Part shown: positions 21,597 to 38,712 of the stretch, in pieces | Layout: each line of letters opens with the position of its first letter | How positions within the stretch are numbered: position 1 is the first letter of the stretch | Assembly (NCBI GenBank): GCA_017961065.1 | Contig: JAGCXZ010000166.1 | Span: 1 to 39,370 of the forward strand | Length of the DNA stretch: 39,370 bases | From: Lachnospiraceae bacterium | GTDB lineage: Bacteria > Bacillota > Clostridia > Lachnospirales > Lachnospiraceae | Direction of reading: 5' to 3' | Made by a program: the position numbers and the translations under genes | The notes under the pieces: generated by a model | Databases searched by the model: none | Seen by the model: the letters and a program-made list of their open reading frames with translations, nothing else | Told to the model about the DNA's origin: nothing

Positions 21597-21643
21597 TTGA
21601 CAAATCTATTTTTGTGTATCATAATTAGGAACGGTTCTCAATT
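21597..21643 (+). promoter_or_regulatory. Sigma-A-type promoter (TTGACA-17-CATAAT) overlapping an imperfect 21-bp palindrome, a candidate Fur-family operator
   Basis: TTGACA at 21597..21602 and CATAAT at 21620..21625. AATTAGGAACGGTTCTCAATT at 21623..21643 has a perfect GAAC-G-GTTC core and AATT ends. Confidence 0.45.
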
Positions 21644-21709
21644 TGGTGATCCCACCTTGTTTTCTTTATGGAAAATAAGCGCAATTTCAGAATCAGGAAA
21701 GGACAGATC

Positions 21710-22123: not shown

Positions 22124-22147
22124 TCTGGGAACGAAGAGTATACAACC

Positions 22148-23149
22148 ATGAAAAACATTAAAAGAAATATTGCCATTATGATCATTGCCGCTCTTTTGTC
22201 CGGCCTTCTCACAGCCTGCGGTGCAGCATCCCCCGGCGCGAAGGAAGCCGGAGCCGGGGAGGAAAGCGGGATTAAGATCGTAACAACCATTTTCCCCATA
22301 TATGACTGGGTCAGGAGTGTTCTTGGAGAGGAACAGGCTGACCTGACCATGTTACTGAACGACGGTGTCGATCTGCACAGTTATCAGCCTACGGCTGACG
22401 ACATCATGAAAATCTCCACCTGCGATCTGTTCATTTATGTGGGCGGCGAATCTGACGAATGGATGGACGATGCCCTGCAGGAAGCCACCAATAAAGATAT
22501 GGTCGTTCTCAATCTTCTGCAACTTCTCGGCGACTCCGTCAAGGAGGAGGAAGTAGTGGAAGGCATGCAGGCCGAAGAAGAGGAAGAAGGCGAAGGAGAA
22601 GAGGAAGAGACCGAATACGACGAGCATGTCTGGCTATCGGTTCGCAACGCTTCTTTACTCTCGCAACACATTTCCGAAGCGCTGCAAAAGATCGATCCGG
22701 ATAAAGCTTCCGTGTATCAGAGTAATGCGGATGCCTATATCGAAAAGCTGAAAGCGCTGGACGAAAAATATACAGCGGAAGTTAATGCCTCCGCTGTAAA
22801 GACCCTGCTTTTCGGTGACCGGTTCCCGTTCCGCTATCTGACGGATGATTACGGACTCTCATACTATGCAGCCTTTGTCGGATGTTCTGCGGAAACGGAA
22901 GCAAGCTTTGAAACCGTGACGTTCCTTGCGCAAAAGGTCGACGAGCTGTCCTTACATGCTGTCATGACCATCGAAGGATCCGATCACCGGATCGCCGAAA
23001 CGATCATCAACAATACAGCCACCAAAGACCAGAAGATCCTGACGCTTGACTCCATGCAGTCCTGTACGCAGAACGATGTGGACTCCGGCGCTACCTATCT
23101 TTCGATCATGGAAAACAATCTTGCAGTCCTGCAGGAAGCACTGAAATAG
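22148..23149 (+). CDS. Metal (Zn/Mn-type, cluster A-I) ABC substrate-binding lipoprotein
   Basis: Lipobox LLTACG; IVTTIFPIYDWV, DLHSYQPT and EYDEHVWLS metal-ligand regions. The acidic loop EEEEEGEGEEEETEYDEH takes the place of the usual His-rich loop. Confidence 0.88.
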   Translation: MKNIKRNIAIMIIAALLSGLLTACGAASPGAKEAGAGEESGIKIVTTIFPIYDWVRSVLGEEQADLTMLLNDGVDLHSYQPTADDIMKISTCDLFIYVGGESDEWMDDALQEATNKDMVVLNLLQLLGDSVKEEEVVEGMQAEEEEEGEGEEEETEYDEHVWLSVRNASLLSQHISEALQKIDPDKASVYQSNADAYIEKLKALDEKYTAEVNASAVKTLLFGDRFPFRYLTDDYGLSYYAAFVGCSAETEASFETVTFLAQKVDELSLHAVMTIEGSDHRIAETIINNTATKDQKILTLDSMQSCTQNDVDSGATYLSIMENNLAVLQEALK

Positions 23150-23158
23150 GAGAAAACC

Positions 23159-23869
23159 ATGGCTTTACTTACCGTAACGGATCTGTCAGCCGGGTACGAT
23201 TCCCACGCTGTCGTGAAAGACTTGAATTTTACCGTAAATACCGGGGACTATCTTTGCGTAGTCGGCGAAAACGGTTCCGGAAAAACCACACTGATGAAAA
23301 CACTGCTGCATCTTCAGGATCCCGTAAGCGGAAAGATCCTGATCGGTGACGGGCTGAACCAGAATGAGATCGGCTATCTGCCGCAGCAGAGTGATGTGCA
23401 GAAGGACTTCCCCGCATCCGTTTCGGAGATCGTTCTCTCCGGATGCCAGGCCCGTTGCGGACTGCGGCCTTTTTACAACAAAAAAGAGAAAAAACTGGCC
23501 AAAGAAAACATGGAACGCATGGGGATCACTTCCCTTGCAAACAAAAGCTACCGTGAATTATCGGGCGGCCAGCAGCAGCGCGTCTTGCTGGCAAGAGCTC
23601 TTTGCGCCACGAGAAAACTGTTACTGCTGGATGAGCCTGTTGCAGGTCTTGATCCGGTCGTAACGGGAGAAATGTATGACTTGATCGCATCCTTAAACCG
23701 GGACGGTGTTTCGATCATAATGATCTCGCACGATGTATCCGCCGCGGTCCGCTACGGAAGCCATATCCTGCATATCGGCGATTCCGCGTTCTACGGAACG
23801 AAGGATGCTTATCTGAACAGCAGCGAAGGAAAGGCTTTCCTTCTGCAGCAGAAAGGACAGGTTGGATAG
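23159..23869 (+). CDS. Metal ABC transporter ATP-binding protein (ZnuC-like)
   Basis: Walker A GENGSGKTT, signature LSGGQQQRV, Walker B LLLLDEP, H-loop ISHD. Confidence 0.9.
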   Translation: MALLTVTDLSAGYDSHAVVKDLNFTVNTGDYLCVVGENGSGKTTLMKTLLHLQDPVSGKILIGDGLNQNEIGYLPQQSDVQKDFPASVSEIVLSGCQARCGLRPFYNKKEKKLAKENMERMGITSLANKSYRELSGGQQQRVLLARALCATRKLLLLDEPVAGLDPVVTGEMYDLIASLNRDGVSIIMISHDVSAAVRYGSHILHIGDSAFYGTKDAYLNSSEGKAFLLQQKGQVG

Positions 23870-24712
23870 ATGTTTGAAAAAATCGCTTTTTATCTGGAAT
23901 ATCCCTTTGTCAGATATGCGTTGATCGTCGGCATACTGATCGCACTGTGCTCCTCGCTCCTGGGCGTGACACTCGTGCTGAAGCGCTTTTCCTTCATCGG
24001 AGACGGGCTGTCGCATGTTGCCTTCGGTGCGATCGCGATCGCGTCCGTTCTGAAACTGACCAACAACATGTTTCTGGTCCTGCCTGTCACGATCATCAGC
24101 GCCATTCTTCTGCTCAGGACCGGGCAGAATGCAAAGATCAAGGGGGACGCCGCCATTGCGATGATCTCGGTCGGCGCACTGGCTTTCGGTTACCTGCTCA
24201 TGAATATCTTCTCGACTTCCTCAAACCTGTCCGGAGACGTCTGCAGTACTTTATTCGGTTCCACGTCCATCCTGACACTTACCGAAAAGGAAGTCTGGCT
24301 GAGTGCCGTGCTCTCCTTTGTTGTGATCGTGATCTTTGTATTGTTCTATAACAAGATCTTTGCCGTAACGTTTGACGAGAACTTTGCCAAAGCGATCGGA
24401 ACCGCCACGAACGCCTACAACCTTTTGATCGCCGTGATCATTGCTGTGATCATCGTTCTGGCCATGAACCTTGTCGGTTCCCTGCTCATATCGGCGCTTG
24501 TGATCTTCCCGGCCTTATCCGCAATGCGGCTGTTCAACAGCTTCCGCTCCGTGACGATCTGTTCTGCGTTGCTTTCCGTCACCTGCGCCTTCCTCGGGAT
24601 CATGATATCCATCCTGGCGGGAACGCCTGTCGGATCGACCATTGTCGCCGTGGATGTAGCCGGTTTCGCATTCTGCTGTCTGGGTGGTTTTGTCAGAACA
24701 AGGCTTGGTTGA
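23870..24712 (+). CDS. Metal ABC transporter permease (ZnuB-like, ABC-3 family)
   Basis: 280 aa, 8-9 hydrophobic helices, start overlapping the ATPase stop (TAGATG). Typical ABC-3 pattern (FIGDGLSHVAFGA...). Confidence 0.9.
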   Translation: MFEKIAFYLEYPFVRYALIVGILIALCSSLLGVTLVLKRFSFIGDGLSHVAFGAIAIASVLKLTNNMFLVLPVTIISAILLLRTGQNAKIKGDAAIAMISVGALAFGYLLMNIFSTSSNLSGDVCSTLFGSTSILTLTEKEVWLSAVLSFVVIVIFVLFYNKIFAVTFDENFAKAIGTATNAYNLLIAVIIAVIIVLAMNLVGSLLISALVIFPALSAMRLFNSFRSVTICSALLSVTCAFLGIMISILAGTPVGSTIVAVDVAGFAFCCLGGFVRTRLG

Positions 24713-24749
24713 TTTTATCTGAAAATACTGATCCGGGAGTGATCCTGAC

Positions 24750-25217
24750 ATGAAGAAAAGAATCTGTCTGTTACTGTGTTGTGTTGTGCTCATAATCACA
24801 GCCGGCTGCGAAAGCAGGACAGCCGATGATCCTGCGCCTGCCGCTCCGGAAAACCCCATCGTTGATCTCACGGTACTTTCAAGCACGATGGTGTACTCCG
24901 AGGTCTATCACATGATGGTCACACCGGGTGATTTTATCGGAAAGACCGTTAAGATGCAGGGCACCTATACCACGTTCTATGACGAAGCCAAACAGAAGCG
25001 GTATGATGCCTGCGTGATACAGGATGCCACAGCATGCTGCGCGCAGGGAATCGAATTTCTCCTGACGGACGATTACGCATATCCGGACGACTATCCCAAA
25101 GACGGCGATACGATCTGCGTAACCGGTTCATTTGATACCAATCATGAAGATAACTATACCTATTGCGTTCTGAAGAACGCCAGTCTTGTCGATCAGTCTG
25201 CCGAAGAAGACGGCTGA
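24750..25217 (+). CDS. Small Cys-rich lipoprotein of unknown function, last gene of the metal-uptake operon
   Basis: Lipobox IITAGC. The mature part contains DACVIQDATACCAQGIEF and further Cys/His/Asp residues. It starts 37 nt after the permease. Confidence 0.6.
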   Translation: MKKRICLLLCCVVLIITAGCESRTADDPAPAAPENPIVDLTVLSSTMVYSEVYHMMVTPGDFIGKTVKMQGTYTTFYDEAKQKRYDACVIQDATACCAQGIEFLLTDDYAYPDDYPKDGDTICVTGSFDTNHEDNYTYCVLKNASLVDQSAEEDG

Positions 25218-25993
25218 TCTTCTCTTTCTTCGTTCAGCTCGTCAACCCTTGCTGACGGTTTGACATGCATTTCCACCCAGGCCGGTACAAAGCCGCTTTT
25301 GATCGCGTTTCCGACAGATCTGACATTTGACCAGGCCGTGCAGTAAAACGGCACCTTATCACGCGCCAGTATCTCTCTTGTCAGTCTGCAGGTCAGCGCA
25401 GACGCGATCCCCTGCTGCCTGTACTCCGCCAGAACATCCACACCGATCTGCCACATAAGTTCCGCATCCGCAGAACATGCCGCAAAGCCAACCTGCTTTG
25501 TGCCGTCATAAGCGCCGACGCCCAGCACATCCAGATGCTTACGCTCTTCACACAGCGCATTGCTCCATTCGGGCCGGTACAGATCGGCAAAATCACTCTG
25601 CTCAAGCACTCTCATCTCATACGCACACGTCCGCTCCGGCAGTCTGTTCAGATCCGGCAGATAGTATTCACACATGAAACAGATCTTCTGTCCCTTTTGC
25701 CCCAGCCGTTCATTCAGCCACTGCATGTTAGGCGGCTCAAAGCAGTGATAGAATTTGTATCTGGCAATATATTCGCTAACAAGTTCCGACAGTTCCGGGA
25801 TTGATGCCGCCACAATGTTCTTTCCGTAGGAAATGAAACTGCAGGTGGTGTCCTCTTTCATGAATTTCTTTGCGTTTTTGCCCATCCGGAACGGCACCGA
25901 CACATTTCTGTCCGATGCCAGATCCTCATAGGAACATCCGATATCTTCCGCCGACTGTTCCATCGCGATCTTAAGCATTTCTTTGTTTGTCAT
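25193..25993 (-). CDS. GNAT-family N-acetyltransferase
   Basis: Start MTNKEMLKIAMEQ at 25993. C-terminal GNAT core VGFAACSAD...IGVDVLAEYRQQGIASALTCRL...FYCTAWSNVRSVGNAIKSGF. Confidence 0.75.
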   Translation of the reverse strand: MTNKEMLKIAMEQSAEDIGCSYEDLASDRNVSVPFRMGKNAKKFMKEDTTCSFISYGKNIVAASIPELSELVSEYIARYKFYHCFEPPNMQWLNERLGQKGQKICFMCEYYLPDLNRLPERTCAYEMRVLEQSDFADLYRPEWSNALCEERKHLDVLGVGAYDGTKQVGFAACSADAELMWQIGVDVLAEYRQQGIASALTCRLTREILARDKVPFYCTAWSNVRSVGNAIKSGFVPAWVEMHVKPSARVDELNEEREDQPSSSAD

Positions 25994-26115
25994 TTTCAGC
26001 CCTTTCTGATCTCCCGTATCCCCTTCGGGTTTTAATCGGTTCTCTGGCCATAATTCTAACTTACTCAGGGTCACTGTTCAAGCCATGATCTATCCGCCTT
26101 GTATCGCGATCGCTA

Positions 26116-26144
26116 TTGAACTCCAACCGCATTTTTACTAAAAT
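26116..26144 (+). promoter_or_regulatory. Sigma-A-type promoter TTGAAC-17-TAAAAT
   Basis: TTGAAC at 26116..26121 and TAAAAT at 26139..26144, ~60 nt upstream of the 26207 start (RBS GGAGGG). Confidence 0.5.
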
Positions 26145-26206
26145 GTAAATAACAAGAATTTCCTGTGAGAACAAGCGGATTATCCTAAAAAGTCGGAGGG
26201 CACAAT

Positions 26207-26935
26207 ATGATTGCAAAACTGAAAGATTTTAGGATCCTGTCAATTGCATTGCTTTACATTATCGGATTTCTCCCGTTTCTTACCGTTAAAGTTCCTATAG
26301 TAGGAGGCGCAATCAAAAAATCGGCATCCATGGTCGATCTGGCTGGTAATACCTTTGTAGCAACGGGGAAGATCTTCTATGTGGTTCCGATCGTTGTCAT
26401 TCTGCTGATCCTTTTCCTGGACCATAAGATCTCACCCAAACTGATCTATCTGGTTGCCGGCATCTTCGGCATCGGACTGACCCTCTTTACGGTCATCTTT
26501 ACGGGTAAACGGGTCGCTACCGGATACAAGCATGGTCCAAACATCGGTTTCTTCCTGGTTCTGGCTGTCTGGGTGTTTGTTTTGGTGTGGACATGCGTGA
26601 AGGATTTTGCGATCAGCAAAGATTCCATACAGCAGAACGGGATCAAAGCCGCGTTAACAGATGTTGCCAATCAGACATTGAAGGAAGCCGATATCGCACT
26701 GAACAATATGAAAAACATGAATTCCGGAAATTCCGCATCCGGAATGCCGGGTCCCGTTCCGAATGTCTTTTGCCCGTCATGCGGCAAGCCTGCCGGCGAA
26801 CCCGGCACGAAATTCTGCCCTTACTGCGGTGCCGTACTGGAAAGCACCCCTGTGCAAATGACATGCACAAATTGCGGCGCGGATTTGCAGCCCGGCACGA
26901 AATTCTGCAGAAAATGCGGAGCCAAGGTCCTTTGA
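26207..26935 (+). CDS. Membrane protein with a C-terminal double zinc-ribbon
   Basis: Four or more TM helices, then CPSCGKPAGEPGTKFCPYCGAVL and CTNCGADLQPGTKFCRKCGAKV. Confidence 0.7.
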   Translation: MIAKLKDFRILSIALLYIIGFLPFLTVKVPIVGGAIKKSASMVDLAGNTFVATGKIFYVVPIVVILLILFLDHKISPKLIYLVAGIFGIGLTLFTVIFTGKRVATGYKHGPNIGFFLVLAVWVFVLVWTCVKDFAISKDSIQQNGIKAALTDVANQTLKEADIALNNMKNMNSGNSASGMPGPVPNVFCPSCGKPAGEPGTKFCPYCGAVLESTPVQMTCTNCGADLQPGTKFCRKCGAKVL

Positions 26936-26988
26936 GCCATACTTCATCACTTAACATATTCTCTTGTTAGCAAAGGACGGATATATTT

Positions 26989-28788
26989 TTGAAACGTTTT
27001 GGAAAGAAAACCATCATCATACTGTGTGCGATCATAGCCGCCATTGCAATAGGCGGCTCTGTTGCTTTGGTTTTTATGCTTGAACGTAAGTCAGACAAGC
27101 CAGGCGATCATCAGGCCACCGAAGAAGCAGAGGAGCAAGCAGAGAACACCGCATCTGAGGAAGTTTCTGCTCCCGATCCTAAAAGCAATACGAATCATTT
27201 GGAAGCAAATCCGGAAGAGTCCGCATCTGAGGCAGATACAGTTGTCGAATATGTGGAAAGAAAAGTCATGATCAGGGACGCTTCCGCATCCTCCTATCTG
27301 AAAACCGTTTCACAGGACGGACAAACTTATGAGCCGTTTCATGTAATCGACGGCAATTACACAACTGCCTGGATCGAAGGAAAAGACGACCTGGGCATCG
27401 GAGAATCCCTTTCTTTTGATCTTGGAAACACGGAGCGGATCACAAGAATGCTGATCTATAACGGGTTTTTGAATACAAAGTACCGTTATGCCATCAATGG
27501 AAAGGTGACCCGTCTTCTTGTGGAATTTGATGACGGAACAAGCCAAACGGTGGACGTTAATACAATGTCGGCTCCCGATACCAAAGTTCCTTTTACAGAA
27601 TCAGAGCTGGGACCGACCGAAGTCATATTTGATGAACCCGTGAATGCTTCCGGCGTTAAACTGACTATTCTGGATGCTGTACAAGGCACAAAATACAAAG
27701 ATGTTTGCATTAGTGAAGTAGAGATTTATCACGAAGAGGAATCCTCGTCTGTTGATCAGGGTGAAGAAGTCGTAAACAATGATGTGATGCAGGCATATGA
27801 AGAATACTTCCAGAACAACTTTCCACCGACGGAGTACGGCGGCTATAAAGTGGCTTTTGCATTCATGGATCACGATGACATCCCAGAGCTGATTGTAGAA
27901 CAAGAATTCGATGAAAGCTTGTATACCATCCTCCAATACGACAACGGAACGATCTATACTCTGGGCGAATCGGGCATGATAAGCTATATCGAAAAAGGAA
28001 ATTTGATCCAACTTTCTTGGTGTGATGGGCAGGATAGCGAAGATGTTCTATATCGCATTTCCGGTCATACACTCGAACAGATCGAAGGAAAAGGCGCTTC
28101 GTACATCGATGACGGGATCATCAGGTATTACAGAATCGATGCAAACGGCAAAGAATCCGATATCTCAGAAGGGGAATACAACAATGCTTTCAATAACTAT
28201 CCGGGGAAATTCAGATCACCCAGTCCGTTCTGGAACTTCGTTCTGGAAGCCGGAATGTATATAAACAGCAAGCCCGCTCAGGTATTCCGGGCTTTCCTGG
28301 ATGATGCGATCAAAATGAACGGCAGAACTTATTCCGAGATGGCTAAAGAGTATTATAACGACCGCGGCCAGTCGCCCGACACTTATCTCTATGATGTGGA
28401 CGGAGATTATGAATATGAACTTCTGATCGACAATTACTACGGATTTGACATTTATGACTGTCGAAACGGAGAGCTTTGCCTGTTGGATTGCGGCGACGGT
28501 ACCGCTGCGATCTGCAACCTTTATCGAAAAGACGGCAAGGTATATGTAGGCCATGCCGACTTCCAGCACGCCGGCAGACAGACACTGGATCTCACGCGAT
28601 ATGACAGTGATGGGAAGGCTGTTGAAGAATTGAATCTCAATGCCGAGTACTGGGAGAACGAGAATGACCAATACGACAAAAACAGTGATTTTTCTTTCTG
28701 CGGTCAAAAGATCACCATGCAGGAATATGAACAGTATCTGAAAGATTTTGCGTATATAAATCCCTATGATATGCCGCGCATTAACTAG
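26989..28788 (+). CDS. Single-pass membrane protein with a discoidin/F5-F8-type-C-like domain
   Basis: TTG start. TM helix IIILCAIIAAIAIGGSVALVFML and an acidic linker. HVIDGNYTTAWIEGKDDLGIGESLSFDL...ISEVEIY resembles a discoidin/NedA-like carbohydrate-binding module. The rest is unknown. Confidence 0.65.
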   Translation: MKRFGKKTIIILCAIIAAIAIGGSVALVFMLERKSDKPGDHQATEEAEEQAENTASEEVSAPDPKSNTNHLEANPEESASEADTVVEYVERKVMIRDASASSYLKTVSQDGQTYEPFHVIDGNYTTAWIEGKDDLGIGESLSFDLGNTERITRMLIYNGFLNTKYRYAINGKVTRLLVEFDDGTSQTVDVNTMSAPDTKVPFTESELGPTEVIFDEPVNASGVKLTILDAVQGTKYKDVCISEVEIYHEEESSSVDQGEEVVNNDVMQAYEEYFQNNFPPTEYGGYKVAFAFMDHDDIPELIVEQEFDESLYTILQYDNGTIYTLGESGMISYIEKGNLIQLSWCDGQDSEDVLYRISGHTLEQIEGKGASYIDDGIIRYYRIDANGKESDISEGEYNNAFNNYPGKFRSPSPFWNFVLEAGMYINSKPAQVFRAFLDDAIKMNGRTYSEMAKEYYNDRGQSPDTYLYDVDGDYEYELLIDNYYGFDIYDCRNGELCLLDCGDGTAAICNLYRKDGKVYVGHADFQHAGRQTLDLTRYDSDGKAVEELNLNAEYWENENDQYDKNSDFSFCGQKITMQEYEQYLKDFAYINPYDMPRIN

Positions 28789-28818
28789 GATCGAAAAAAT
28801 GTCTATGGAGGCAATGCA

Positions 28819-29844
28819 ATGAGCGAGCAAAAGAACTGGTATTATTTATCCGACACAAATGAACAGGTAGGGCCCTTTTCAGAATCCCAAATCCCGCAGT
28901 TAGTTGCCTCCGGTGCGATAAACGGCCTGACCAGGGTTTGGACGCTCGGAATGAATGGCTGGATCATGCTGAAACACTCACCGTTAAATCAGCTCATGAG
29001 CGTTGAGCCTACAGTTCCCACGCCCGTCATGCAAAATCAGAAAAAAGCACCTACTGGTTTATGGATCGCTCTGGGTGTTTCATTGACCATCATCCTTGCA
29101 ATGGCGGCACTGATCGCCTTCCTGTTCCTGCGCACCTCCAAAGCGCAAATAGAGGGACCCGGGTTTGATTCTCCCAAGGCCGCCGCAGAAGCTTTTTCCA
29201 AAGCATACAGCGAGAAAGATATCGACGGCATGTATGCGGCATGTGCCCTGGAAAGCTACGTGAAACACTTTGATCTGGAGAAGTACATTGAGAACATGCA
29301 GGCATATACCCCGGCGAAATACTACATGTTCGGTAACAGCGATGCAACTGCTACTATGAATGAACACCTTCGGGAATGGGAACTCACCCGGTCATTTTAC
29401 AATCTCTATGAAACTCCTCTCTGGAATCGTTCGGATTATTCGGATCAGCGCGGTATGTCTCTCAATTTGGAAAAAACCGGAATGCAAGCAATAACCGATC
29501 TGCTAAAAGGCGTTGACGCACTTAATACGATCGAAGTGAAGAGAGTGGAAACCGTTTCCGAATTCTGTGAAGAAACCGGGCAGCTTTCCCTGGAAGAAAA
29601 CTTCATGGGTGATGCAAACCAAAATCGTCTGTCCAAATGGAAAGAAATGTATGGCGGCGAAGTCGTAGACATGGCTGTTTCGATGAACATAGACGGAGAT
29701 CATTATTATCTGTTCCTGCAAGCGATCTCTTATGACAACGATAAATGGTATGTGTTTAACACACACGGCATGCTTGCATCCCTGCTCGGATTGGATGCTA
29801 ATTCCGGCGGGCTGTGTCTGACATCGGAACCGGGGGCGAACTGA
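28819..29844 (+). CDS. GYF_2 (DUF4339)-domain membrane protein
   Basis: GGAGG RBS. N-terminal WYYLSDTNEQVGPFSESQIPQLVASGAINGLTRVWTLGMNGWIML is GYF_2-like. One TM helix, then a ~230-aa external domain. Confidence 0.7.
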   Translation: MSEQKNWYYLSDTNEQVGPFSESQIPQLVASGAINGLTRVWTLGMNGWIMLKHSPLNQLMSVEPTVPTPVMQNQKKAPTGLWIALGVSLTIILAMAALIAFLFLRTSKAQIEGPGFDSPKAAAEAFSKAYSEKDIDGMYAACALESYVKHFDLEKYIENMQAYTPAKYYMFGNSDATATMNEHLREWELTRSFYNLYETPLWNRSDYSDQRGMSLNLEKTGMQAITDLLKGVDALNTIEVKRVETVSEFCEETGQLSLEENFMGDANQNRLSKWKEMYGGEVVDMAVSMNIDGDHYYLFLQAISYDNDKWYVFNTHGMLASLLGLDANSGGLCLTSEPGAN

Positions 29845-29877
29845 TGTCTTTTTTGTCTTCGGCCTCAGAGACTGGTT

Positions 29878-30285
29878 TTATTCTCTTGCCAAAAACTCTG
29901 CCGGAGCAAACGCAAGCACTTCGCTTTTTTTGAAATCTTTCACATTTCTCGTGATGATATGATCTGCATGGATTCGCCTGGCAGTAACGGCCTGTACTGC
30001 ATCCTCAAAATCATCCCACTTCAGTTCTGCAGCTGAATTGATATCGGATGCGGTCAGATCTGCAAGCGAAAAGATCAAGGATAGTTTTTTTATCACTTCC
30101 TCTGTCTTCTCAGGGCTCAGTTCTTTTCGCATGACATAAACCAAATTTGCAAATGTTAGAGCAGAAACATATCCTTCCGCCCGCTCTGTTTCACACATTT
30201 TCCAAATCTTTGCCGAATCTTCGTAATGCGGTTCTCTTTTCTGGAGGACATCGAGAAGAATGTTTCCGTCAATCAGTAATTTCAT
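29878..30285 (-). CDS. PIN-domain toxin (VapC-like) of a type II toxin-antitoxin pair
   Basis: MKLLIDGNILLDVL (Asp6), FEDAVQAV, IITRNVKDF. Overlaps the upstream antitoxin gene by 17 nt. Confidence 0.88.
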   Translation of the reverse strand: MKLLIDGNILLDVLQKREPHYEDSAKIWKMCETERAEGYVSALTFANLVYVMRKELSPEKTEEVIKKLSLIFSLADLTASDINSAAELKWDDFEDAVQAVTARRIHADHIITRNVKDFKKSEVLAFAPAEFLARE

Positions 30286-30517
30286 ATCTCTCCTTTAGTT
30301 CTTTCTCCTTCGCCTGGTCTATGTCCGTATCTCCTTTAAGGATTCCGGTAAGAGAATCCGTCAGATATGACACGGCTGCTGCTCGAGGTATAAACCGCCC
30401 TACTTCTTTGCCGTTTTTCGTAACGATAACTTCGCTGCCGCTCTGCACCAAAGCAAGATACCGGCCGAAGTTATTCTGCATCTCTGTTGCTGTAGCAGTT
30501 GCTGTATTTCCAATCAT
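30269..30517 (-). CDS. Phd/YefM-family antitoxin
   Basis: ATEMQNNFGRYLALVQSGSEVIVTKNGKEVGRFIP is a typical Phd/YefM N-terminal fold. GGAGGTG RBS. Confidence 0.85.
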   Translation of the reverse strand: MIGNTATATATEMQNNFGRYLALVQSGSEVIVTKNGKEVGRFIPRAAAVSYLTDSLTGILKGDTDIDQAKEKELKERYEITD

Positions 30518-30537
30518 GGTATCACCTCCGACTTTTA

Positions 30538-30577
30538 TTAGCTAATTTTATTATATCATTTTTTAGCTAATATGCAA
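30538..30577 (-). promoter_or_regulatory. Promoter (minus-sense TTGCAT-16-TATAAT) bracketed by two TTAGCTAA palindromes, the likely Phd/PIN autoregulatory operators
   Basis: TTAGCTAA at 30538..30545 and 30563..30570. -10 (plus-strand attata) at 30550..30555 and -35 (plus-strand atgcaa) at 30572..30577. Confidence 0.55.
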
Positions 30578-30612
30578 GTGTGACCGGATCTTGCTTAAAC
30601 CATGCGTTAAAC

Positions 30613-30643
30613 AAAAAAGGATCCGGAATTCCGGTTCCTTTTT
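30613..30643. terminator. Bidirectional terminator hairpin at the left end of repeat copy A
   Basis: AAAAAA-AAGGATCCGG-AATT-CCGGTTCCTT-TTT. Confidence 0.7.
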
Positions 30644-30822
30644 ACAGGGCTAGGAGGGCGCTAAACGTCCAGTGGACGTTTGTTAAGCGCCGACCGGAGC
30701 AGCGCGAAGAACGAACCTCCAAATGACGGAGTCAGAGAACCTTGCCTGTTGCCCTGAACATATTGTATTTATCATGCTTTTCAGCATTTCACGTTTTTTG
30801 ATTGACCTATGAATTGACCTAT
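30613..30822 (-). repeat. Copy A of a ~210-bp structured repeat, a candidate sRNA or 3'-UTR element ending in a rho-independent terminator
   Basis: About 95% identical by eye to 31754..31965. Nested stems CAGGGC/GCCCTG, GGAG/CTCC, GGCGCT/AGCGCC and AAACGTCC/GGACGTTT. Tandem ATTGACCTAT direct repeat at the right end. Confidence 0.85.
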
Positions 30823-30953
30823 CTTTTTTTCGAAATTTCTGTATAAATCGCTTCACTCTACTTATCGCAATCCAAACGCATCCTCAACGATTCTATCCAG
30901 ATATTCCTTCTTGGAAAAATCACTTCCGTCTGCAAAAAAAGCATTATATGCAA

Positions 30954-31127
30954 CTAATTCGCTGTCTCCTTCATCTTGTATTTCTTATCCAGATATTTCT
31001 TTGCATCTTCAAAAGTTATTTCACCATTCTTTTCCTTCTCTATATACTTTTTGAAATCCTCTGTTGGCTCTAGCCCATCGACCTTGATCATTCCGATGGC
31101 ATAGTCCCATGCCTGTGAATTTGTCAT
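30954..31127 (-). CDS. VbhA-like antitoxin-domain protein (57 aa), with no Fic partner in view
   Basis: AGGAGG plus a 7-nt spacer before ATG at 31127. AWDYAIGMIKVDGLEPTEDFKKYIEKEKNGEITFEDAKKYL matches the VbhA pattern (..EGLEPS.E......G.I....). Own promoter TTGAAG-18-TATAAT (plus-strand 31176..31205). Confidence 0.7.
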   Translation of the reverse strand: MTNSQAWDYAIGMIKVDGLEPTEDFKKYIEKEKNGEITFEDAKKYLDKKYKMKETAN

Positions 31128-31243
31128 ATGTCGACCTCCTATCATCGTTATCTGATACTCCATATTTGCGTTTATATTATACTCTCTTTTATTGCTGTGC
31201 TTCAATATCGTTTAATCATACTTTAAAAAGAAGAACAGGCTTT

Positions 31244-31678
31244 CTAAAGGTTCACAGTTTCTGAATCCAAATACACGTGCCTAAGATTATTATTCATACA
31301 GATAGCCTTGGAATCATCACAAAGATAATAACTCCATATAAGCACAAGCCGCATCATAAAATAAAAATAGCCCCAAAAATGCTTATATCCACAGTAAGCA
31401 CATCTATATGCAGCATACATATATACCAGTCCGGCGTCACTTAAACACTCATCAAATATTAAATTATTGTCCCTGATACCATGCGAAACCAGATAACTCT
31501 TGGCTTTTCTTATGGATAATTCATAGGAATACAAACTCATATATTCTGCAATCTTTTCTTCCGGCATCTGTTTCCTGACTTTTTCTATCCCTCTTGGGAT
31601 ATAGTATTCTTTCATCCTCCTTGCCATCTCCTTCTTTTTGAAATAGTCTTCATCATCTTTACTTTTTACTGTTCTCAC
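31244..31678 (-). CDS. Hypothetical protein, aromatic/Cys-rich (start uncertain: GTG 31678, ATG 31627 or ATG 31615)
   Basis: ORF downstream of an extended -10 TGGTACAAT (plus-strand 31725..31733). No family recognised. The segment DECLSDAGLVYMYAAYRCAYCGYKHFWGYFYFMMRLVLIW is faintly reminiscent of sigma-70 region 2. Confidence 0.45.
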   Translation of the reverse strand: MRTVKSKDDEDYFKKKEMARRMKEYYIPRGIEKVRKQMPEEKIAEYMSLYSYELSIRKAKSYLVSHGIRDNNLIFDECLSDAGLVYMYAAYRCAYCGYKHFWGYFYFMMRLVLIWSYYLCDDSKAICMNNNLRHVYLDSETVNL

Positions 31679-31753
31679 AATGCTAAAGTTCCTTTTTCCA
31701 ACGAATACTTTCCTGCAAATTGGAATTGTACCACATAAGATCATAAATGATAT

Positions 31754-31786
31754 AAAAAAAAGGAACCGACTCACCGGTTCCTTTTT
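31754..31786. terminator. Bidirectional terminator hairpin at the left end of repeat copy B
   Basis: A run, then AAGGAACCG-ACTCAC-CGGTTCCTT followed by TTT. Confidence 0.7.
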
Positions 31787-31965
31787 ACAGGGCTAGGAGG
31801 GCGCTGAACGTCCGGCGGACGTTCGTTAAGCGCCGACCGAAGCAGCGCGGAGACCGAACCTCCAAATGACAGAGTCAGAGAACCTTGCCTGTTGCCCTGA
31901 ACATATTGTATTTATCATGCTTTTCAGCATTTCATGTTTTTGGATTGACCTATGAATTGACCTAT
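31754..31965 (-). repeat. Copy B of the ~210-bp structured repeat, starting 11 nt after the HEPN stop codon
   Basis: Aligns with 30613..30822 with about ten substitutions. The inner stem becomes GAACGTCC/GGACGTTC, a compensatory double change relative to copy A. Confidence 0.85.
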
Positions 31966-31975
31966 TTTCAAAGTG

Positions 31976-32410
31976 TTATCTATATCCTTCCTTAACCAGA
32001 TCGGCATACCATTGATCAGCCTCTTCATAGCATCTCTTCAATGTATCTATTCTTACCACAAGATGAAGATCATAACGTCCGGTTGCTTCCCAGCGTGTTA
32101 TTATGTCTTTATTCTTATCAATATAAGATGGCATATTAATTGCAATGCCTAGAGAGTTTGCATAAACAAGCAAATCTTTAATGGAATGCTTATACATACG
32201 TGCGTTGTCGATCTTCTTTCCGGAAGCATATATCTGAATCTTGACCATCTTTTCGCACGCTTGCTGCAGATGATAAGCACCCTGACCCTTGATTGACTTT
32301 GACATTCTGGCAGAGGCCTTTTCGGCCTGCTCGATGGAGTACTTTGACAAGAGCAGATCAGCCTTTACTTGCGTCATTGAAAGAATATCATTTACATTAG
32401 TGACGGGCAT
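31976..32410 (-). CDS. HEPN-domain protein (partner of the minimal nucleotidyltransferase)
   Basis: YHLQQACEKMVKIQIY...YKHSIKDLL is a typical HEPN helix pattern. Overlaps the upstream MNT gene by 14 nt. Confidence 0.78.
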   Translation of the reverse strand: MPVTNVNDILSMTQVKADLLLSKYSIEQAEKASARMSKSIKGQGAYHLQQACEKMVKIQIYASGKKIDNARMYKHSIKDLLVYANSLGIAINMPSYIDKNKDIITRWEATGRYDLHLVVRIDTLKRCYEEADQWYADLVKEGYR

Positions 32411-32807: not shown

Positions 32808-32827
32808 TTACTATTTGCAAATAGTAA
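32808..32827. promoter_or_regulatory. Perfect 20-bp palindrome, candidate operator of the MNT/HEPN operon
   Basis: TTACTATTTGCAAATAGTAA lies ~45 nt upstream of the MNT start, adjacent to AT-rich -10-like hexamers. Confidence 0.5.
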
Positions 32828-34363: not shown

Positions 34364-36553
34364 CTAGATTATGCTCATCTCCATGAGTTTTTCTATAAAA
34401 CGCTCATAGAAGGCTCTCTCTTTCTCCCTCGCCGCAAGTACTTTCGAACCCCTTGTTGTATCAGGCTCGAGAGGATGGTCAAGAGCATAAATAGCGTCCT
34501 GCGCCGCCTGGATGGCCGAGTTTACCGTACTCCCCAGAACATCATCAGGATCATATCCGTTATACTGGCGGATAAATCGCTGTATCATAAACTGTGGGAT
34601 ATGATCGAGTGTTCCGGAAGCCGATAATCCCTGTCCGTCCATGCCAATTTCATCTGCAGCATCCAACCAGGCATTTTTTACGTTCTCCGAAGCATTCTTT
34701 CCAATACCCAGAAATGCCTGTTCTCTCATTGCACGGACCTTATCCCTGGAATCTGTGGATGTTTTATCTCCTGTACTGTTTATGCCCAGAGCTCTCTGGT
34801 TTGCTTCTATTTGGGCATTCCAGTTATCCCACATTTCCTGCTCCGTAAATACCCTGCCGATAAAATGAGTGTTATTGATATATTCTGCAAAAGGCTCGGT
34901 CAAGAGATCTCCCAGATTCTTGCCCTCCTGTAACCCCTTCTCAACATTTATCTTTCCGTTATCGGTGGAATCGAAATATGCACGGAATCCGTCAATATCA
35001 AAATCATCCTTCATGAAATCCTTCCAGAACTTCTCCTGTGGAGCGAACGTTAGATTCTGATCCTTGGAAAAACTATTTAGAAACTTCTGAACCTTTTCAT
35101 AACTGTCCGGGGAATCATAAGTTAGACTCCATAAATCCCTCTGCGATATCTTTCCCCCTTCATCTTTTATTTCCTTACAGGAAATCCCCTTATCAGTATA
35201 GGCTGTGATATATCTGGTATTCACCGGAACAATCTCACCGGTATCAGGATTCGTGTACTGATTGTGTTTTGAAACAATTGTTTCGGATATCGGATCGGTT
35301 GTGTTGTCAGAATCGACATATCCGTTTTTCAAAGCGCTGATCTTTTCCCTGGTCTCAACATCATTGAGATCCGCAAACAAGAGCGAGAATGCTTCTTCAG
35401 AGAATCCGCTTCCCCTCATTGCCCTGTCGAAAAAAGAGTTTATGGCGTCAAATATCTTATTCGCAAGACTTGCAAGAGAAGGCGCCGAATCACTGTACTC
35501 TTCAGCATACTGGCCTAACAAGCTGACACGATCTCCTCTGTCAAATATCCCGTCGAAATAGCTTGTATCCGTAAAATAGCTACTTGCTATCAGATCAGCA
35601 GTTTCATCCGTCTGCCTGATATACATGCACATTGCCACAAACTCAGGGTAATCCATATCCTTCGGATCCAGCTCATACGGATCAAATACTCTTTCGAACG
35701 CCTCGCCGTTTTCATCAATGCCTGTTATCGTATATGTTTTATCCTTGCCGTCAGAATTGATGATTATATTGAATGACTGCTCCGTTTCCCTGTAAGAATA
35801 GATCACTTCTCCATTGGAATTCTGCTGTACATAAGACTCCTTGGTCTTGATATTGGCTGTAATGAACCTGGTGTATGCAGCCGGATCTCCATATCCTTTG
35901 CTGGCAATCGGAATACATGTGGCATCCATGTCACTTGACACCTCACTTTTCCTAGATACTTCTGTGATCATGTTCGTGCCATTATCAAGCCTTGTTTCTG
36001 CCCAACGTTCAAGTCCGGCAACAATGTTCTCACAGTTAAGTCCTTGATCATATGCCTGCGGAATGCCTAAAAATGTCTCTTTTGCATTTTGCAGTATCGC
36101 GGTCCAGTCTCTGTTCTTTGTCCATGCCATATCAGGATCGGAAAGATTACTGCAAAATCCATTATATTCCGCCTGTGCCCCATACGCTGTCATTTTTCCG
36201 AACGATTTAATGCCGGTATTATCGATAAGCCCCTTATCATCCATATAACTCATCAGTGCGAACATCTCCACTTTTGTAGCATTATGCGGATCAACATCAT
36301 TTACTCTAACCTCATAATCTCCGACTTTGATGATAGGATCTTCTTCTGTTGATGAGTCCGCATATTGGGCAATATACCCTATGTTACCAATCGTCATAAC
36401 TCCGATATTTTTACCTTGGTCAGATGAAGCGGTCCGTGAAGTAGCACTCCCCATAAATTCTTGCCCGATAGAGTCCTCTCCACGATTTGATTTCGAGCCA
36501 AAGCTTCCATACTGGTACGTTTGATTAAAACTTGTTTGTACTGCAAATGACAT
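34364..36553 (-). CDS. 729-aa protein of unknown function; no signal peptide, TM helix or recognisable catalytic motif
   Basis: AGGAGG plus an 8-nt spacer before ATG at 36553 (MSFAVQTSFNQ...). The upstream in-frame extension of the 772-aa ORF has no RBS and crosses the leader hairpin. Confidence 0.75.
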   Translation of the reverse strand: MSFAVQTSFNQTYQYGSFGSKSNRGEDSIGQEFMGSATSRTASSDQGKNIGVMTIGNIGYIAQYADSSTEEDPIIKVGDYEVRVNDVDPHNATKVEMFALMSYMDDKGLIDNTGIKSFGKMTAYGAQAEYNGFCSNLSDPDMAWTKNRDWTAILQNAKETFLGIPQAYDQGLNCENIVAGLERWAETRLDNGTNMITEVSRKSEVSSDMDATCIPIASKGYGDPAAYTRFITANIKTKESYVQQNSNGEVIYSYRETEQSFNIIINSDGKDKTYTITGIDENGEAFERVFDPYELDPKDMDYPEFVAMCMYIRQTDETADLIASSYFTDTSYFDGIFDRGDRVSLLGQYAEEYSDSAPSLASLANKIFDAINSFFDRAMRGSGFSEEAFSLLFADLNDVETREKISALKNGYVDSDNTTDPISETIVSKHNQYTNPDTGEIVPVNTRYITAYTDKGISCKEIKDEGGKISQRDLWSLTYDSPDSYEKVQKFLNSFSKDQNLTFAPQEKFWKDFMKDDFDIDGFRAYFDSTDNGKINVEKGLQEGKNLGDLLTEPFAEYINNTHFIGRVFTEQEMWDNWNAQIEANQRALGINSTGDKTSTDSRDKVRAMREQAFLGIGKNASENVKNAWLDAADEIGMDGQGLSASGTLDHIPQFMIQRFIRQYNGYDPDDVLGSTVNSAIQAAQDAIYALDHPLEPDTTRGSKVLAAREKERAFYERFIEKLMEMSII

Positions 36554-36573
36554 GTTTGAGCCCTCCTTTTGAG

Positions 36574-36631
36574 TAATAAAACAGCGCCTGATTTCAGTTT
36601 CACTCCATTGAAATCCGACGCTGTCCATAGC
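36574..36631 (-). promoter_or_regulatory. Conserved leader hairpin plus U-tract (attenuator-like), copy 1
   Basis: Minus-sense GCTATGGA-CAGCGTCGGATTTCA-ATGGAGTGAAAC-TGAAATCAGGCGCTG-TTTTATT. 15-bp stem with one mismatch and one G-U. About 75% identical to 38738..38794. Confidence 0.55.
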
Positions 36632-36680
36632 ATTTATTTTTCGGTTGTATGATTTGGTTATCGGTTCATTCCTAAGATTC

Positions 36681-36733
36681 ATTATACGTTCAGCATAAAC
36701 AGACCATAAAATATCATAAAACGACTATAAGAT
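36681..36733 (-). promoter_or_regulatory. LytTR-type paired direct repeats plus TATAAT: promoter of the 729-aa gene
   Basis: Minus-sense ATCTTATAGTCG-TTTTATGAT-ATTTTATGGTCT, then 14 nt, then TATAAT (plus-strand attata at 36681..36686). Repeat starts are 21 bp apart. The distal repeat overlaps the kinase stop codon. Confidence 0.6.
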
Positions 36734-38005
36734 GGTCACGGCAGTAAACTCTTTTTCATCACAGGAGATTGCAAAACTGCCTTCATACTTATCGATCACG
36801 CCTTGAACATTTGACAACCCGATCCCTTGTCCGTCCCTTGAACCGTTCTGCACCTGGTTATCTGTAATATCCACCTTTTGAACGACCGGATTCCTTACAG
36901 TAAAGATTATCCCGGAATCCTTCTCAACAAGTTTCACCTGTATAGATGCAGATCTCCCGCACGTCTTCACTTTTTTACATTCATGTATTGCGTTTTCAAG
37001 AAGATTTCCCATAACTATGACAATATCATCATCCGAAAGACGAATATTGCACATATCACTGATGGTAAAGACCATTCCTATATCTTCACTTTTGGCAATC
37101 CGATAAAACTGATTTAGAACAGCATTTACAACAGGATGTCCGGTGTTGACTTCCGACATTTCCACAGCGATGCTTTTCGTCAATTGTTCCGTGAACTCTA
37201 TAGCCGCCTCCACGTCTCCGTTTTTTAACAATTCCTCAACAGTAGCCAGTTGTTTTTTATAATCATGAAGTTTCCGGCCCTGCCGTTCATAAAGAGACTG
37301 CATATCGTGAAAAGCCCGAAGCTGATTCTGTTTGCTCTCTATCTGTACCTCAGATAAACGCAATTTTTCATCTTTAATCAACGAATCTTGCAATAGGAAC
37401 ATGGAAAAAATGTTTACCGCAAGCAACACAGCCGAAACTATTCCTTGAAAAATCCCAACGCCAGCCGGTGACACAAAAAACATATAAAAAAACATTCCCA
37501 CAATCATTGTAACAAGCGGTACCCATATGTACGATCTCAGCATCACATGTTCTTTTTTCAAGCATTCCTTAACTCGATGCAGCTTTTTTCGAAGAACAAA
37601 CTCTATACAAAATGCAATTAGGCAGGACAAACACGCCATTAGATTTAAAAAAGTCGGATTATTGCTTCGGCTAAGCTGAAGCGGCACACATACCAGAATC
37701 TGTGTAAGGATTTGTAAAAGTACTGCCGCACCGGAAAAGAATACGCTCATGATCCAATCAGATCTGTAACAGATCCTGACAAAAAGCATATGTATTGCAA
37801 TATATGTTATCAGTTTTATCGAATAATATTCATTTGGTATCTTTTCAAACAGCGCAGAATTTCCGCCTACAGAAAGCGCAAGCAGAATAAACGAAATCAG
37901 TTTTTGAATCTTCCCCCATTTAAAAAAAATAAAGGAATCATAATAATAGATGCACAGTGCTGTTTCAAATACACAAGTGCTTATAAATACCAACCATGCA
38001 GTCAT
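36725..38005 (-). CDS. AgrC/ComD-like (HPK10) membrane histidine kinase with a GHKL ATPase domain
   Basis: About six N-terminal TM helices, a coiled linker, then GNLLENAIHE ... DGQGIGLSNV (HATPase_c_5-like). 4-nt overlap with the LytTR regulator gene. Confidence 0.85.
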   Translation of the reverse strand: MTAWLVFISTCVFETALCIYYYDSFIFFKWGKIQKLISFILLALSVGGNSALFEKIPNEYYSIKLITYIAIHMLFVRICYRSDWIMSVFFSGAAVLLQILTQILVCVPLQLSRSNNPTFLNLMACLSCLIAFCIEFVLRKKLHRVKECLKKEHVMLRSYIWVPLVTMIVGMFFYMFFVSPAGVGIFQGIVSAVLLAVNIFSMFLLQDSLIKDEKLRLSEVQIESKQNQLRAFHDMQSLYERQGRKLHDYKKQLATVEELLKNGDVEAAIEFTEQLTKSIAVEMSEVNTGHPVVNAVLNQFYRIAKSEDIGMVFTISDMCNIRLSDDDIVIVMGNLLENAIHECKKVKTCGRSASIQVKLVEKDSGIIFTVRNPVVQKVDITDNQVQNGSRDGQGIGLSNVQGVIDKYEGSFAISCDEKEFTAVTIL

Positions 38006-38712
38006 AGTTTTTTCCCCTCATACAGTGTATACTCCTGTTTAACCTGCTTATATCTGGCTTTTGGTACCGATATCTGTCTATCATTATCAAGCGTCAGGAT
38101 ATAACTGTTGATATTTCTGATATGCTCCATATTCACAAGAAAGCTTTTATGTGTCCTCAAAAAGCCCTGCGCCTTGAGCCGTTCCTCAAGTTCTTCCAGT
38201 TTTTCATAGATCTGGTATGTCCGATCCTTCAGTTGAATCAAACACTTATGCCCTTCTGTTTCAATCAAGATGATCTCTGATGTCTTCAACCGAATATTTC
38301 CTTCAACGCAGTCAAAGCAAATCGTCTTGGATCTTCTTTGCAGTTCATTGCAGATATCATCCATACATTCTGAAAATGTACGATAAAGGTCATCCTTGAT
38401 CAGAAAGCGACTCGCTCGCACCTTGTATCCGTCCAATGCAAAGCTCATAAACGATGTCACAAGAATGATCGGAACATCTTCAAGTCTCTCCCGGATTCTT
38501 TTGGCTACTGTCAGACCATCCATCGCGTCCATATTGATATCCAAAAAAATGATATCCACAGTTTTCCCTTTGCGGATGGCATCAAGCATTTCGACACCTG
38601 ATCGATATCCTGATACCGCAAATTCCATATGATTTTTCCTAGCATATTCGTCAATAAGCGTTTTCAGCCTTGCAATGTCCTCTAAATCATCGTCACAAAT
38701 AAAAACCTTCAT
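38002..38712 (-). CDS. LytTR-family response regulator (AgrA/ComE-like)
   Basis: Receiver MKVFICDDD...IIFLDINMDAMDG. C-terminal LytTR domain (IILIETEGHKCLIQL...FLRTHKSFLVNMEHI). Confidence 0.9.
   Translation of the reverse strand: MKVFICDDDLEDIARLKTLIDEYARKNHMEFAVSGYRSGVEMLDAIRKGKTVDIIFLDINMDAMDGLTVAKRIRERLEDVPIILVTSFMSFALDGYKVRASRFLIKDDLYRTFSECMDDICNELQRRSKTICFDCVEGNIRLKTSEIILIETEGHKCLIQLKDRTYQIYEKLEELEERLKAQGFLRTHKSFLVNMEHIRNINSYILTLDNDRQISVPKARYKQVKQEYTLYEGKKL

Follow-up and report, generated by a model that had tools for sequence, protein, structure and literature searches.

Probable attP-like junctions derived from tRNA-Gln(CUG) in a toxin–antitoxin gene array of a rumen Lachnospiraceae bacterium

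The stretch of DNA analyzed in this study (the window) comprises 39,370 nucleotides of a Lachnospiraceae bacterium (GenBank assembly GCA_017961065.1, contig JAGCXZ010000166.1, positions 1 to 39,370) and contains two copies of a structured repeat unit, copy A (30608..30825) and copy B (31751..31968), both on the minus strand among genes of toxin–antitoxin (TA) type. Each copy is probably an attachment-site (att) junction of the attP-like kind, left by small islands that integrated into a tRNA-Gln(CUG) gene. Read on the minus strand, such a junction would begin with a P arm, in which two 10-bp arm-type repeats ATAGGTCAAT in a 12-bp phase would bind a tyrosine integrase and are followed by an A/T-rich spacer of ~60 bp. 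Next would come a degenerate copy of tRNA-Gln, with the anticodon loop CUCUGAC as the likely crossover core and a 3' half that is still tRNA-like, and then an island-borne intrinsic terminator, which at attL would end the reconstituted tRNA. The region would thereby represent a tandem array of decayed, integrase-less islands resembling cis-mobilizable elements (CIMEs), formed by repeated site-specific accretion and subsequent deletions. The nested helices of the element would correspond to the vestigial acceptor and T stems, the terminator, and a palindrome of 54 nt that was inserted into the T-loop later. In this model the genuine tRNA-Gln(CUG) of the host would have the 3' half TCCGTCATTTGGAGGTTCGAATCCTCCTAGCCCTG.

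Structure of the Repeat Units

A repeat finder detected a single two-copy family of direct repeats (D1) in the window, with 218-nt units that are 91% identical and spaced by 1143 bp; a 26-mer of the element occurs exactly twice, against 0 occurrences expected. The order of the adjacent genes, all on the minus strand, is MNT, the overlapping 144-aa gene, copy B, orf144, the VbhA-like antitoxin, copy A, Phd, and PIN. Copy B directly follows the MNT/144-aa toxin-like pair, with its first repeat 10-11 nt past the stop of the 144-aa gene (31976-32410). Copy A precedes the Phd-PIN pair and lies 131 nt past the stop of the VbhA-like gene, ~100 of these nucleotides being the remnant of a deleted Fic toxin gene.

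The proposed arm-type repeats of the P arm have the form ATAGGTCAAT-TC-ATAGGTCAAT and are located at 31944..31965 in copy B and at 30801..30822 in copy A; these four sites are the only occurrences of ATAGGTCAAT in the window. The pseudo-tRNA-Gln(CUG), of 112 nt including the 54-nt insert, occupies 31788..31899 in copy B (core CTCTGAC at 31874-31880) and 30645..30756 in copy A (core at 30731-30737). The 54-nt hairpin itself, which stands in place of the AAT of the T-loop and contains GGCGCT/AGCGCC with a TAAC bulge, is found at 31801..31854 and 30658..30711, respectively. Copy B ends in the intrinsic terminator AAAAAGGAACCGG-TGAG-TCGGTTCCTTTTT with a T run (31750..31786), interpreted as island-borne and lying on the P' side. 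The clean terminator that the preliminary description of this DNA saw at the end of each copy was called by the terminator scan for copy B; copy A has the same hairpin with one stem mismatch (AAAAAGGAACCGG-AATT-CCGGATCCTTTTTT, 30608..30643; inverted repeat I4, fold, and pattern match).

Folding of the minus strand gave z-scores of -4.6 and -4.0 for the two copies. The predicted helices are CAGGGC/GCCCTG, the GG/CC of GGAG/CTCC, GGCGCU/AGCGCC with a UAAC bulge, an 8-bp inner stem, and the terminator hairpin. The pairwise alignment shows AAACGTCC/GGACGTTT as the inner stem of copy A and GAACGTCC/GGACGTTC as that of copy B, a double change that keeps the pairing. The two similar copies, their nested helices, the compensatory change, the doubled ATAGGTCAAT, and the distances of 11 and 131 nt to the preceding stops had all been reported in the preliminary description, and all were recovered here, the compensatory change extending to a third and a fourth variant of the hairpin.

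A Vestigial tRNA-Gln(CUG) Frame

Some related contigs share ~97% identity with the window across 3.6 kb, although 54 nt of the element are missing from them (contigs and loci fetched via the neighboring proteins and via Fic, Rce1-like, and integrase homologs are designated by L-numbers). This insert-less form, CAGGGCAA(C/T)AGGCAAGGTT-CTCTGAC-TCCGTCATTT-GGAGG-TTCGAAT-CCTCC-TAGCCCTG, is a canonical T-arm (GGAGG-TTCGAAT-CCTCC) closed by an acceptor-like stem, with the anticodon loop CUCUGAC intact; in the same reading, the insert-less copies run AGGGCAA(C/T)AGGCAAGGTT-CTCTGAC-TCCGT-CATTT, then the T-arm, and then TAGCCCT-G. The insert-less copies align to a genuine tRNA-Gln(CTG) with two internal deletions, and the frame of the window copies aligns to the genuine tRNA-Gln(CTG) of L044 from the anticodon loop through the acceptor end. 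Of a genuine tRNA-Gln(CUG), the copies preserve in recognizable form both acceptor strands (the 5' one as AGGGC.A), the loop CUCUGAC, the T-arm, and the variable region. In contrast to the genuine tRNA, the copies miss ~7 nt of the D loop and ~6 nt of the 5' strand of the anticodon stem, leaving them with no D arm and a disrupted anticodon stem, and the window copies carry the extra 54 nt in the T-loop. The structured frame of the element is, to judge from these alignments, a vestigial and degenerate tRNA-Gln(CUG) cloverleaf.

The degeneration is also reflected in automated searches. No tRNA was called by ARAGORN in the window, L003, L026, or L027, and the window copies are below the threshold of the Rfam tRNA model, which gave 17-23 bits on two insert-less copies of L003 (best 23.4, threshold 29), scores that apply to insert-less copies only. 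Rfam 15 at gathering thresholds matched no family over the whole window, and a permissive local search produced weak sub-threshold matches only, driven by the terminator hairpin.

An origin from tRNA-Lys, prompted by a 19-mer shared with an odd Nitrospirales tRNA-Lys(CTT), was dropped because the genuine tRNA-Gln(CTG) shares the 3' half, the variable region, and the terminator with the element. The 19-mer consists of generic D-arm and anticodon-stem sequence, for which we estimate ~4 chance matches. The Nitrospirales gene itself (L025, 6302-6376, and L030), whose 19-nt AGGCAAGGTTCTCTGACTC in common with the window element is treated as a chance match, is called by ARAGORN, reaches just 19 bits with the Rfam tRNA model, and has ATCGGTCAAT 35 nt upstream.

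Occupied and Empty tRNA-Gln Sites

The most telling comparison came from L044, whose antitoxin is 98% identical to that of the window and whose Fic protein is 89% identical to that of L027. A genuine tRNA-Gln(CTG), called by ARAGORN at 1002-1075, is preceded there by a DUF815 gene and a strong promoter and followed by an AAAAGGAACCGG-loop-CCGGTTCCTTTT terminator, as at the ends of the window copies; the terminator hairpin of copy B is the one that lies 3' of the genuine tRNA at this attL. Three AGGTAAC repeats are located ~130 nt beyond the terminator, and then come genes of the HTH_3, AMP-binding, VbhA, and Fic types. The repeat pair ATAGGTAAC-TAT-ATAGGTAAC starts within the stop codon of the Fic gene. 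The pseudo-tRNA of this locus, CAGGGTTTTCGGAAAAGGA-CTCTGAC-TCCGT..., has its last 37 nt identical to the true tRNA; a different, native terminator and then an Rce1-like gene come after it. In L054-L057, contigs found via the Rce1-like protein, the corresponding site is empty and reads DUF815, promoter, tRNA-Gln(CTG), the native terminator of L044, and the Rce1-like gene. Because of this pair of occupied and empty sites, L044 evidently holds a 3.7-kb integrase-less island with VbhA-Fic cargo inserted in tRNA-Gln. Its attL comprises the tRNA, the island-borne terminator, and the P' arm, whereas its attR joins the P arm and the pseudo-tRNA to the native flank.

For the window's own array, cassette variability is seen between strains, and no clean empty site was found. 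Since the window copies combine a P arm, a core, and an island-type terminator, they would be P-core-P' junctions, as expected between tandemly accreted islands. Their direct orientation, behind the MNT/toxin-like pair, around the cassette of orf144, VbhA, and Fic remnant, and before Phd-PIN, likewise suggests a tandem array of decayed islands.

Proposed Arm Repeats and Adjacent Integrases

The distance from the arm repeats to the core is 85-87 bp in the window copies, L003, L026, L027, L029, L033, L036, L042, L044, and L052, while the spacer diverges; by manual count, L059 and L060 have the same layout with ~85 bp. Seven divergent P arms align almost without gaps, with repeats and core in fixed columns. 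The repeat motif differs by lineage (ATAGGTCAAT, ATAGGTAAC, ATAGGTAAAT, and TAGTCAAA) and also recurs downstream of the core, twice and 22 bp apart in L011, three times in L044, and twice in L052, with downstream-side repeats reported at L062 as well. L011, L044, and L062 have homologous P' arms, which share the GGTAAAA(A)TCAGGnAGTTTTTT block and a conserved inverted repeat. Repeats that flank a core at fixed distances are the layout of arm-type sites of lambda-family integrases. By this analogy, we propose that the ATAGGTCAAT repeats are arm-type sites to which an integrase would bind and that crossover would take place in the anticodon loop.

Integrase genes adjoin these sites in several related loci. 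In L052, the order is HTH_17, a 418-aa Phage_integrase protein, 82-aa and 53-aa open reading frames (ORFs), TNT, a 142-aa ORF, the first copy of the junction, ToxI repeats with ToxN, the second copy, and VbhA-Fic. L059 and L060 have HTH_17, the integrase, a ParE-type TA pair, the repeat pair, and the core. In L062, the integrase is followed by two copies of ATAGGTCAGCA, a terminator, and a tRNA-Gln(CUG) that is cut off by the contig end; ATAGGTCAGCA has the same 8-nt core, ATAGGTCA, as the repeat of the window. An adjacent cognate integrase is thus found in L052, L059, L060, and L062 but not in the window, where no Phage_integrase domain was detected among the large ORFs scanned. The recombination or cassette-boundary site that the preliminary description had offered as an alternative is therefore the interpretation upheld by the occupied and empty tRNA-Gln sites, the fixed spacing of the arm repeats, and the integrases of related loci. 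Binding sites of the LytTR regulator encoded 4 kb away were also considered for the ATAGGTCAAT repeats and set aside, because the motif occurs nowhere else in the window and tracks integrases and tRNA-Gln in other loci.

Two further observations concern these loci. The P' arms of L044 (1151-1207) and L011 (113-157) share a 19-23-nt inverted repeat (CTTCCTGa/gtTTTTac..GTAAAAATCAGGAAG) whose inner positions differ with the pairing kept, and which may be a protein-binding palindrome or a second terminator. In L049 (2808-2908, corresponding to ~6256-6356 of L052), 2.9 tandem copies of a 34-nt unit are located directly upstream of the ToxN-domain gene, an arrangement resembling a type III ToxIN module that forms a single cassette between two pseudo-tRNA junctions.

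Distribution of the Element

In one scan of 185,579 species genomes and one scan of metagenomes, true copies were found only in two rumen Lachnospiraceae metagenome-assembled genomes (MAGs) and in four contigs of one metagenome assembly. The scans used an invariant 18-19-mer, and the family is probably wider, because exact-word searches overlook diverged copies. BLAST and pattern scans of phage, plasmid, and viral collections revealed nothing related; the bare repeat pattern had 10 viral matches, which are assumed to be unrelated.

Each copy is preceded by the last gene of a TA-type pair, which agrees with the association with TA cassettes suggested in the preliminary description. The upstream gene encodes the 144-aa protein after MNT (copy B, L003, and L036), Fic after VbhA (L026, L027, L033, and L042), or a 132-aa ORF (L029). 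The downstream genes vary by genome and include Phd-PIN, a hydrolase, a Lys-rich protein with XdhC, the trp operon, and a 4.9-kb Fic/DUF4417 set. Copies of the A and B types occur separately in other genomes and metagenomes, behind differing genes. For instance, homologs of copy A adjoin intact Fic genes on the downstream side in L026, L027, L033, and L042, and copy B is matched by an identical copy downstream of the same gene in L036, with L003, L004, and L006 carrying insert-less versions of it.

The T-Loop Hairpin

The 54 nt that replace the AAT of the T-loop are present in both window copies (copy B being identical in L036) and in L029, and are absent from L003 (both copies), L004, L006, L026, L027, L033, and L042; L004 and L006 share the flanks and single-nucleotide polymorphisms of copy B yet lack the insert. 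A homologous insert at the same T-loop position is carried by L048, in which both the arm repeats (TTTACA) and the acceptor end (TAGCGCAC) differ, bringing the number of distinct versions to four (window A, window B, L029, and L048). In these four sequences, all 16 pairs of the inner hairpin are Watson-Crick and three of them are changed on both sides, an outcome reached in 4 of 500 shuffles. Copies A and B differ at 7 of the 54 positions of the insert and at 1-2 positions in the rest of the pseudo-tRNA, so the insert evolves faster than the frame. Outside these pseudo-tRNAs, the hairpin was found neither in 475 kb of related loci nor in viral contigs. The compensatory pairing would fit an RNA structure and a DNA palindrome alike. 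The hairpin could be a passive palindrome kept symmetric by templated repair, a miniature insertion specific to the T-loop, or a selected module.

A second kind of hairpin insertion in tRNA remnants at att sites was observed in L052 (6036-6060 and 7028-7052), where both pseudo-tRNAs carry a 23-nt hairpin (GACGC...GCGTC) between TCCG and GTCATTT, at the position of the variable arm.

Alternative Explanations

Several observations weigh against the interpretation of the window copies as products of integration into tRNA-Gln. The 39-kb window contains neither a genuine tRNA-Gln nor a full P' arm; since no integrase was detected there either, a site-specific origin of its two copies is suggested by comparison with the relatives. 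The segment that is extra relative to L027 (MNT, the 144-aa gene, copy B, and orf144) has no att remnant at its breakpoints, for which reason its clean insertion was rejected, and the L011 junction before Phd-PIN falls in the terminator loop and not in the core. These breakpoints indicate that ordinary recombination or deletion also shaped the array. Further, an att site has no need for the pairing that the 5' half of the pseudo-tRNA retains with the 3' acceptor strand, and the att model assigns no role to the 54-nt hairpin and its three compensatory pairs. The source contig ends ~400 nt past the LytTR regulator, which places the left end of the array, together with any true tRNA or integrase there, out of reach.

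A rival related to the conserved 125-145-nt small RNA (sRNA) or 3'-untranslated-region (3'-UTR) element of the preliminary description would be an expressed tRNA-like sRNA or 3'-UTR module acting with the neighboring toxins, either as a decoy or mimic for tRNA-targeting HEPN/PIN toxins or as a processing or stability signal. Such a role would agree with the stable minus-strand folds, with a -10-like TACAAT/TACTAT 7 nt upstream of where the acceptor stem begins and a clean terminator downstream, with the toxin gene that always precedes a copy, and with the retained 5' acceptor strand. The TACAAT hexamer of the preliminary description is indeed present in the window copies, but the promoter scan found no sigma-70-type promoter for the element and no acceptable -35; close copies have TACTAT or TTCAAT in place of the hexamer, and L044, L052, and L059 do not conserve it, so an independent promoter was rejected. 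Among 10 sequences of low diversity, the acceptor stem has 0 compensatory pairs, and one of its pairs is broken independently in L026 and L042; in the four sequences of the inner hairpin, none of the 16 pairs is broken. A conserved functional RNA is disfavored by these findings taken together with the loss of the D arm and of the 5' strand of the anticodon stem and with the polymorphism of the T-loop, which is continuous in some copies and interrupted by 54 nt in others of otherwise identical context. The element also has no Rfam match and no ARAGORN call, and the upstream toxins are unrelated (the 144-aa protein, Fic, ToxN, ParE, TNT, and the 132-aa ORF), as would be expected of island cargo more than of a dedicated partner RNA. 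We consider an expressed RNA improbable. A plain local segmental duplication with no site-specific history would explain two direct repeats 1143 bp apart with 91% identity and those array boundaries that do not coincide with att sequences. It is contradicted by the copies in differing contexts in L026, L027, L029, L033, L036, and L042 and by the architecture of P arm, core, and terminator common to the integrase-linked loci, and appears extremely unlikely.

Two other readings assign a function to parts of the element. The 54-nt hairpin could be a unit of its own, that is, a miniature insertion targeting GGTTCG|AAT|CC or a selected protein-binding or RNA module, the compensatory changes then reflecting selection. 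Its fully preserved pairing, its recurrence at the same site in L048 in spite of different arm repeats and acceptor end, and its precise presence or absence among ~97% identical strains speak for such a unit. Against it are its confinement to these pseudo-tRNAs, the lack of a target duplication and of an associated enzyme, and the thin statistics of four sequences; Watson-Crick-only changes are compatible with a role of either strand, and with DNA as well as RNA. Moreover, symmetric changes in perfect palindromes can arise by templated (quasipalindrome) repair without selection. An independent hairpin unit is, in our judgment, improbable. There is a slim chance, finally, that the array is a working integron-like cassette system, in which an integrase encoded elsewhere would shuffle TA or defense cassettes at the tRNA-Gln-derived attP-like sites and the T-loop hairpin would be a functional add-on (either a miniature insertion specific to the T-loop or a module that makes the pseudo-tRNA a regulatory or decoy RNA). 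The array resembles integron arrays, attC sites, and clusters of attC sites lacking integrases (CALINs) in its small, mostly TA cassettes separated by a repeated structured recombination site with no integrase nearby. Unlike integrons, the window has no IntI and no paired R''/R' boxes, and its sites would be double-stranded lambda-type att sites derived from a tRNA and not folded single strands. A true attC was rejected, as there is one GCTTAAC box only, in the bulge inside the hairpin (the single GTTAAGC match is at chance level), and no integron integrase was found in the scanned ORFs of the window.

Cassette and Neighboring Genes

The 0.9-kb cassette bounded by copies B and A (30826-31750) contains only orf144 (31244..31678, minus strand), the VbhA-like antitoxin gene (30954..31127, minus strand), and the Fic remnant (30862..30964, minus strand). 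The 144-aa orf144 is called as a gene on related contigs and has no Pfam, NCBIfam, or PADLOC match. The antitoxin, of 57 aa, has a weak Pfam VbhA match and is the one nearly identical to the antitoxin of the L044 island. Between it and copy A, BLASTN against L027 identified the last ~31 codons of a Fic toxin gene, whose translation, ...LVAYNAFFADGSDFSKKEYLDRIVEDAFGLR*, is the C-terminus of the 207-aa Fic protein of L027. About 520 bp of the Fic partner were deleted in the region 30862-31127, in which the VbhA-like gene is intact; with only these last codons kept, the antitoxin was orphaned and forms orphan cargo between the copies. The cassette may still be excisable, either by the action in trans of an integrase or through homologous recombination of the two 218-bp repeats, and the terminators of the copies may serve the upstream toxin operons.

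Upstream of copy B, the MNT-type nucleotidyltransferase gene (32765-32397, minus strand) matches the MntA model weakly (28.5 bits vs a cutoff of 60), and its 3' end overlaps the gene of the 144-aa protein (32410-31976, minus strand). This protein was labeled HEPN in the preliminary description; no Pfam, NCBIfam, or PADLOC match bears out the label, and it is the position alone, overlapping the 3' end of MNT, that suggests a type VII TA toxin. Downstream of copy A are the Phd gene (30517-30269, minus strand) and the PIN gene (30285-29878, minus strand).

A 20-bp palindrome, TTACTATTTGCAAATAGTAA, was observed at 32808-32827, a short way upstream of the MNT gene and past the terminator of the SPM gene. 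In L027, a near-identical, imperfect version lies upstream of VbhA, and the palindrome thus marks the start of the variable TA region. Further upstream, 34364-38712 (minus strand) encodes a LytTR response regulator, a GHKL histidine kinase, a DUF8329 protein (772 aa), and an SPM-domain protein (437 aa). This block is kept upstream of the TA array in L001/L002, and L003 and L027 retain SPM together with part of DUF8329; the block has no associated ATAGGTCAAT-type site. On the other side, ~10 kb separate copy A from XdhC (18927-19952), whereas in related MAGs a copy lies ~0.5-6 kb from the Lys-rich protein and XdhC-like gene. The genes in this interval of the window encode Phd-PIN, a GYF protein, a NADase_transloc protein, DZR, GNAT, a ZnuABC-type transporter, Fur, and GGDEF. 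Compared with L026, L027, L029, and L036, positions ~21200-30600 form a strain-variable block at whose far end no att remnant was seen.

Relation to Known Islands and Implications

CIMEs have lost their integration and transfer genes and retain att sites at both ends, and they accrete in tandem at tRNA genes (PMC5704250). The 0.9-kb cassette of the window has no integration or transfer genes and has att-like sites on both sides. As in the CIMEs and tandem accretions at the tRNA-Lys and fda sites of Streptococcus, att sites are kept, the units stand in tandem at one target, and TA modules are frequent (PMC5704250). The units described here differ in being very small, 0.9 kb in the window and 3.7 kb in L044, with one to few genes each, and in their rumen Lachnospiraceae host and tRNA-Gln(CUG) target. 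In the islands shaped by tycheposons, partial-tRNA repeats mark the cargo units of island arrays (bioRxiv 10.1101/2020.12.28.424599). In the Prochlorococcus islands of this kind, too, tRNA-specific integrases build variable regions and partial tRNAs mark the cargo junctions (bioRxiv 10.1101/2020.12.28.424599); the integrase lineage, host, and cargo are different (nutrient genes there, TA/defense-type genes in the window), and no replication module was seen here.

The likeness to attL, attR, and attP sites of tyrosine integrases extends over the core from the anticodon loop to the 3' end of the tRNA, the second occurrence of the tRNA 3' part at the island's far end, the short direct repeats on both sides of the core at fixed positions, the occupied and empty pair of the relative L044, and the integrase and HTH_17 excisionase-like genes that adjoin the sites in related loci. 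The window differs from such sites in having no integrase and no genuine tRNA, in a P' arm that is cut right after the terminator, and in carrying a nearly whole degenerate tRNA and not a 3' segment alone; binding and crossover are predicted here.

Island accretion at tRNA genes and decay into CIMEs are known; new are the unusually small, TA-only units, the tRNA-Gln(CUG) target, and the rumen Lachnospiraceae host. A candidate novel structured RNA would thus be reassigned to a well-understood class, the tRNA-derived att sites of decayed islands, which spares follow-up. The analysis also holds a caution for the discovery of RNA motifs, as vestigial tRNA stems and terminators yield strong folding z-scores and apparent covariation. 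The insertion of a hairpin into the T-loop is the item of wider interest. For the Lachnospiraceae of the rumen, the analysis documents a family of very small, integrase-less TA islands at tRNA-Gln(CUG), and the occupied and empty sites, the arm-repeat motifs, and the candidate integrases could seed the annotation of islands in gut and rumen genomes.

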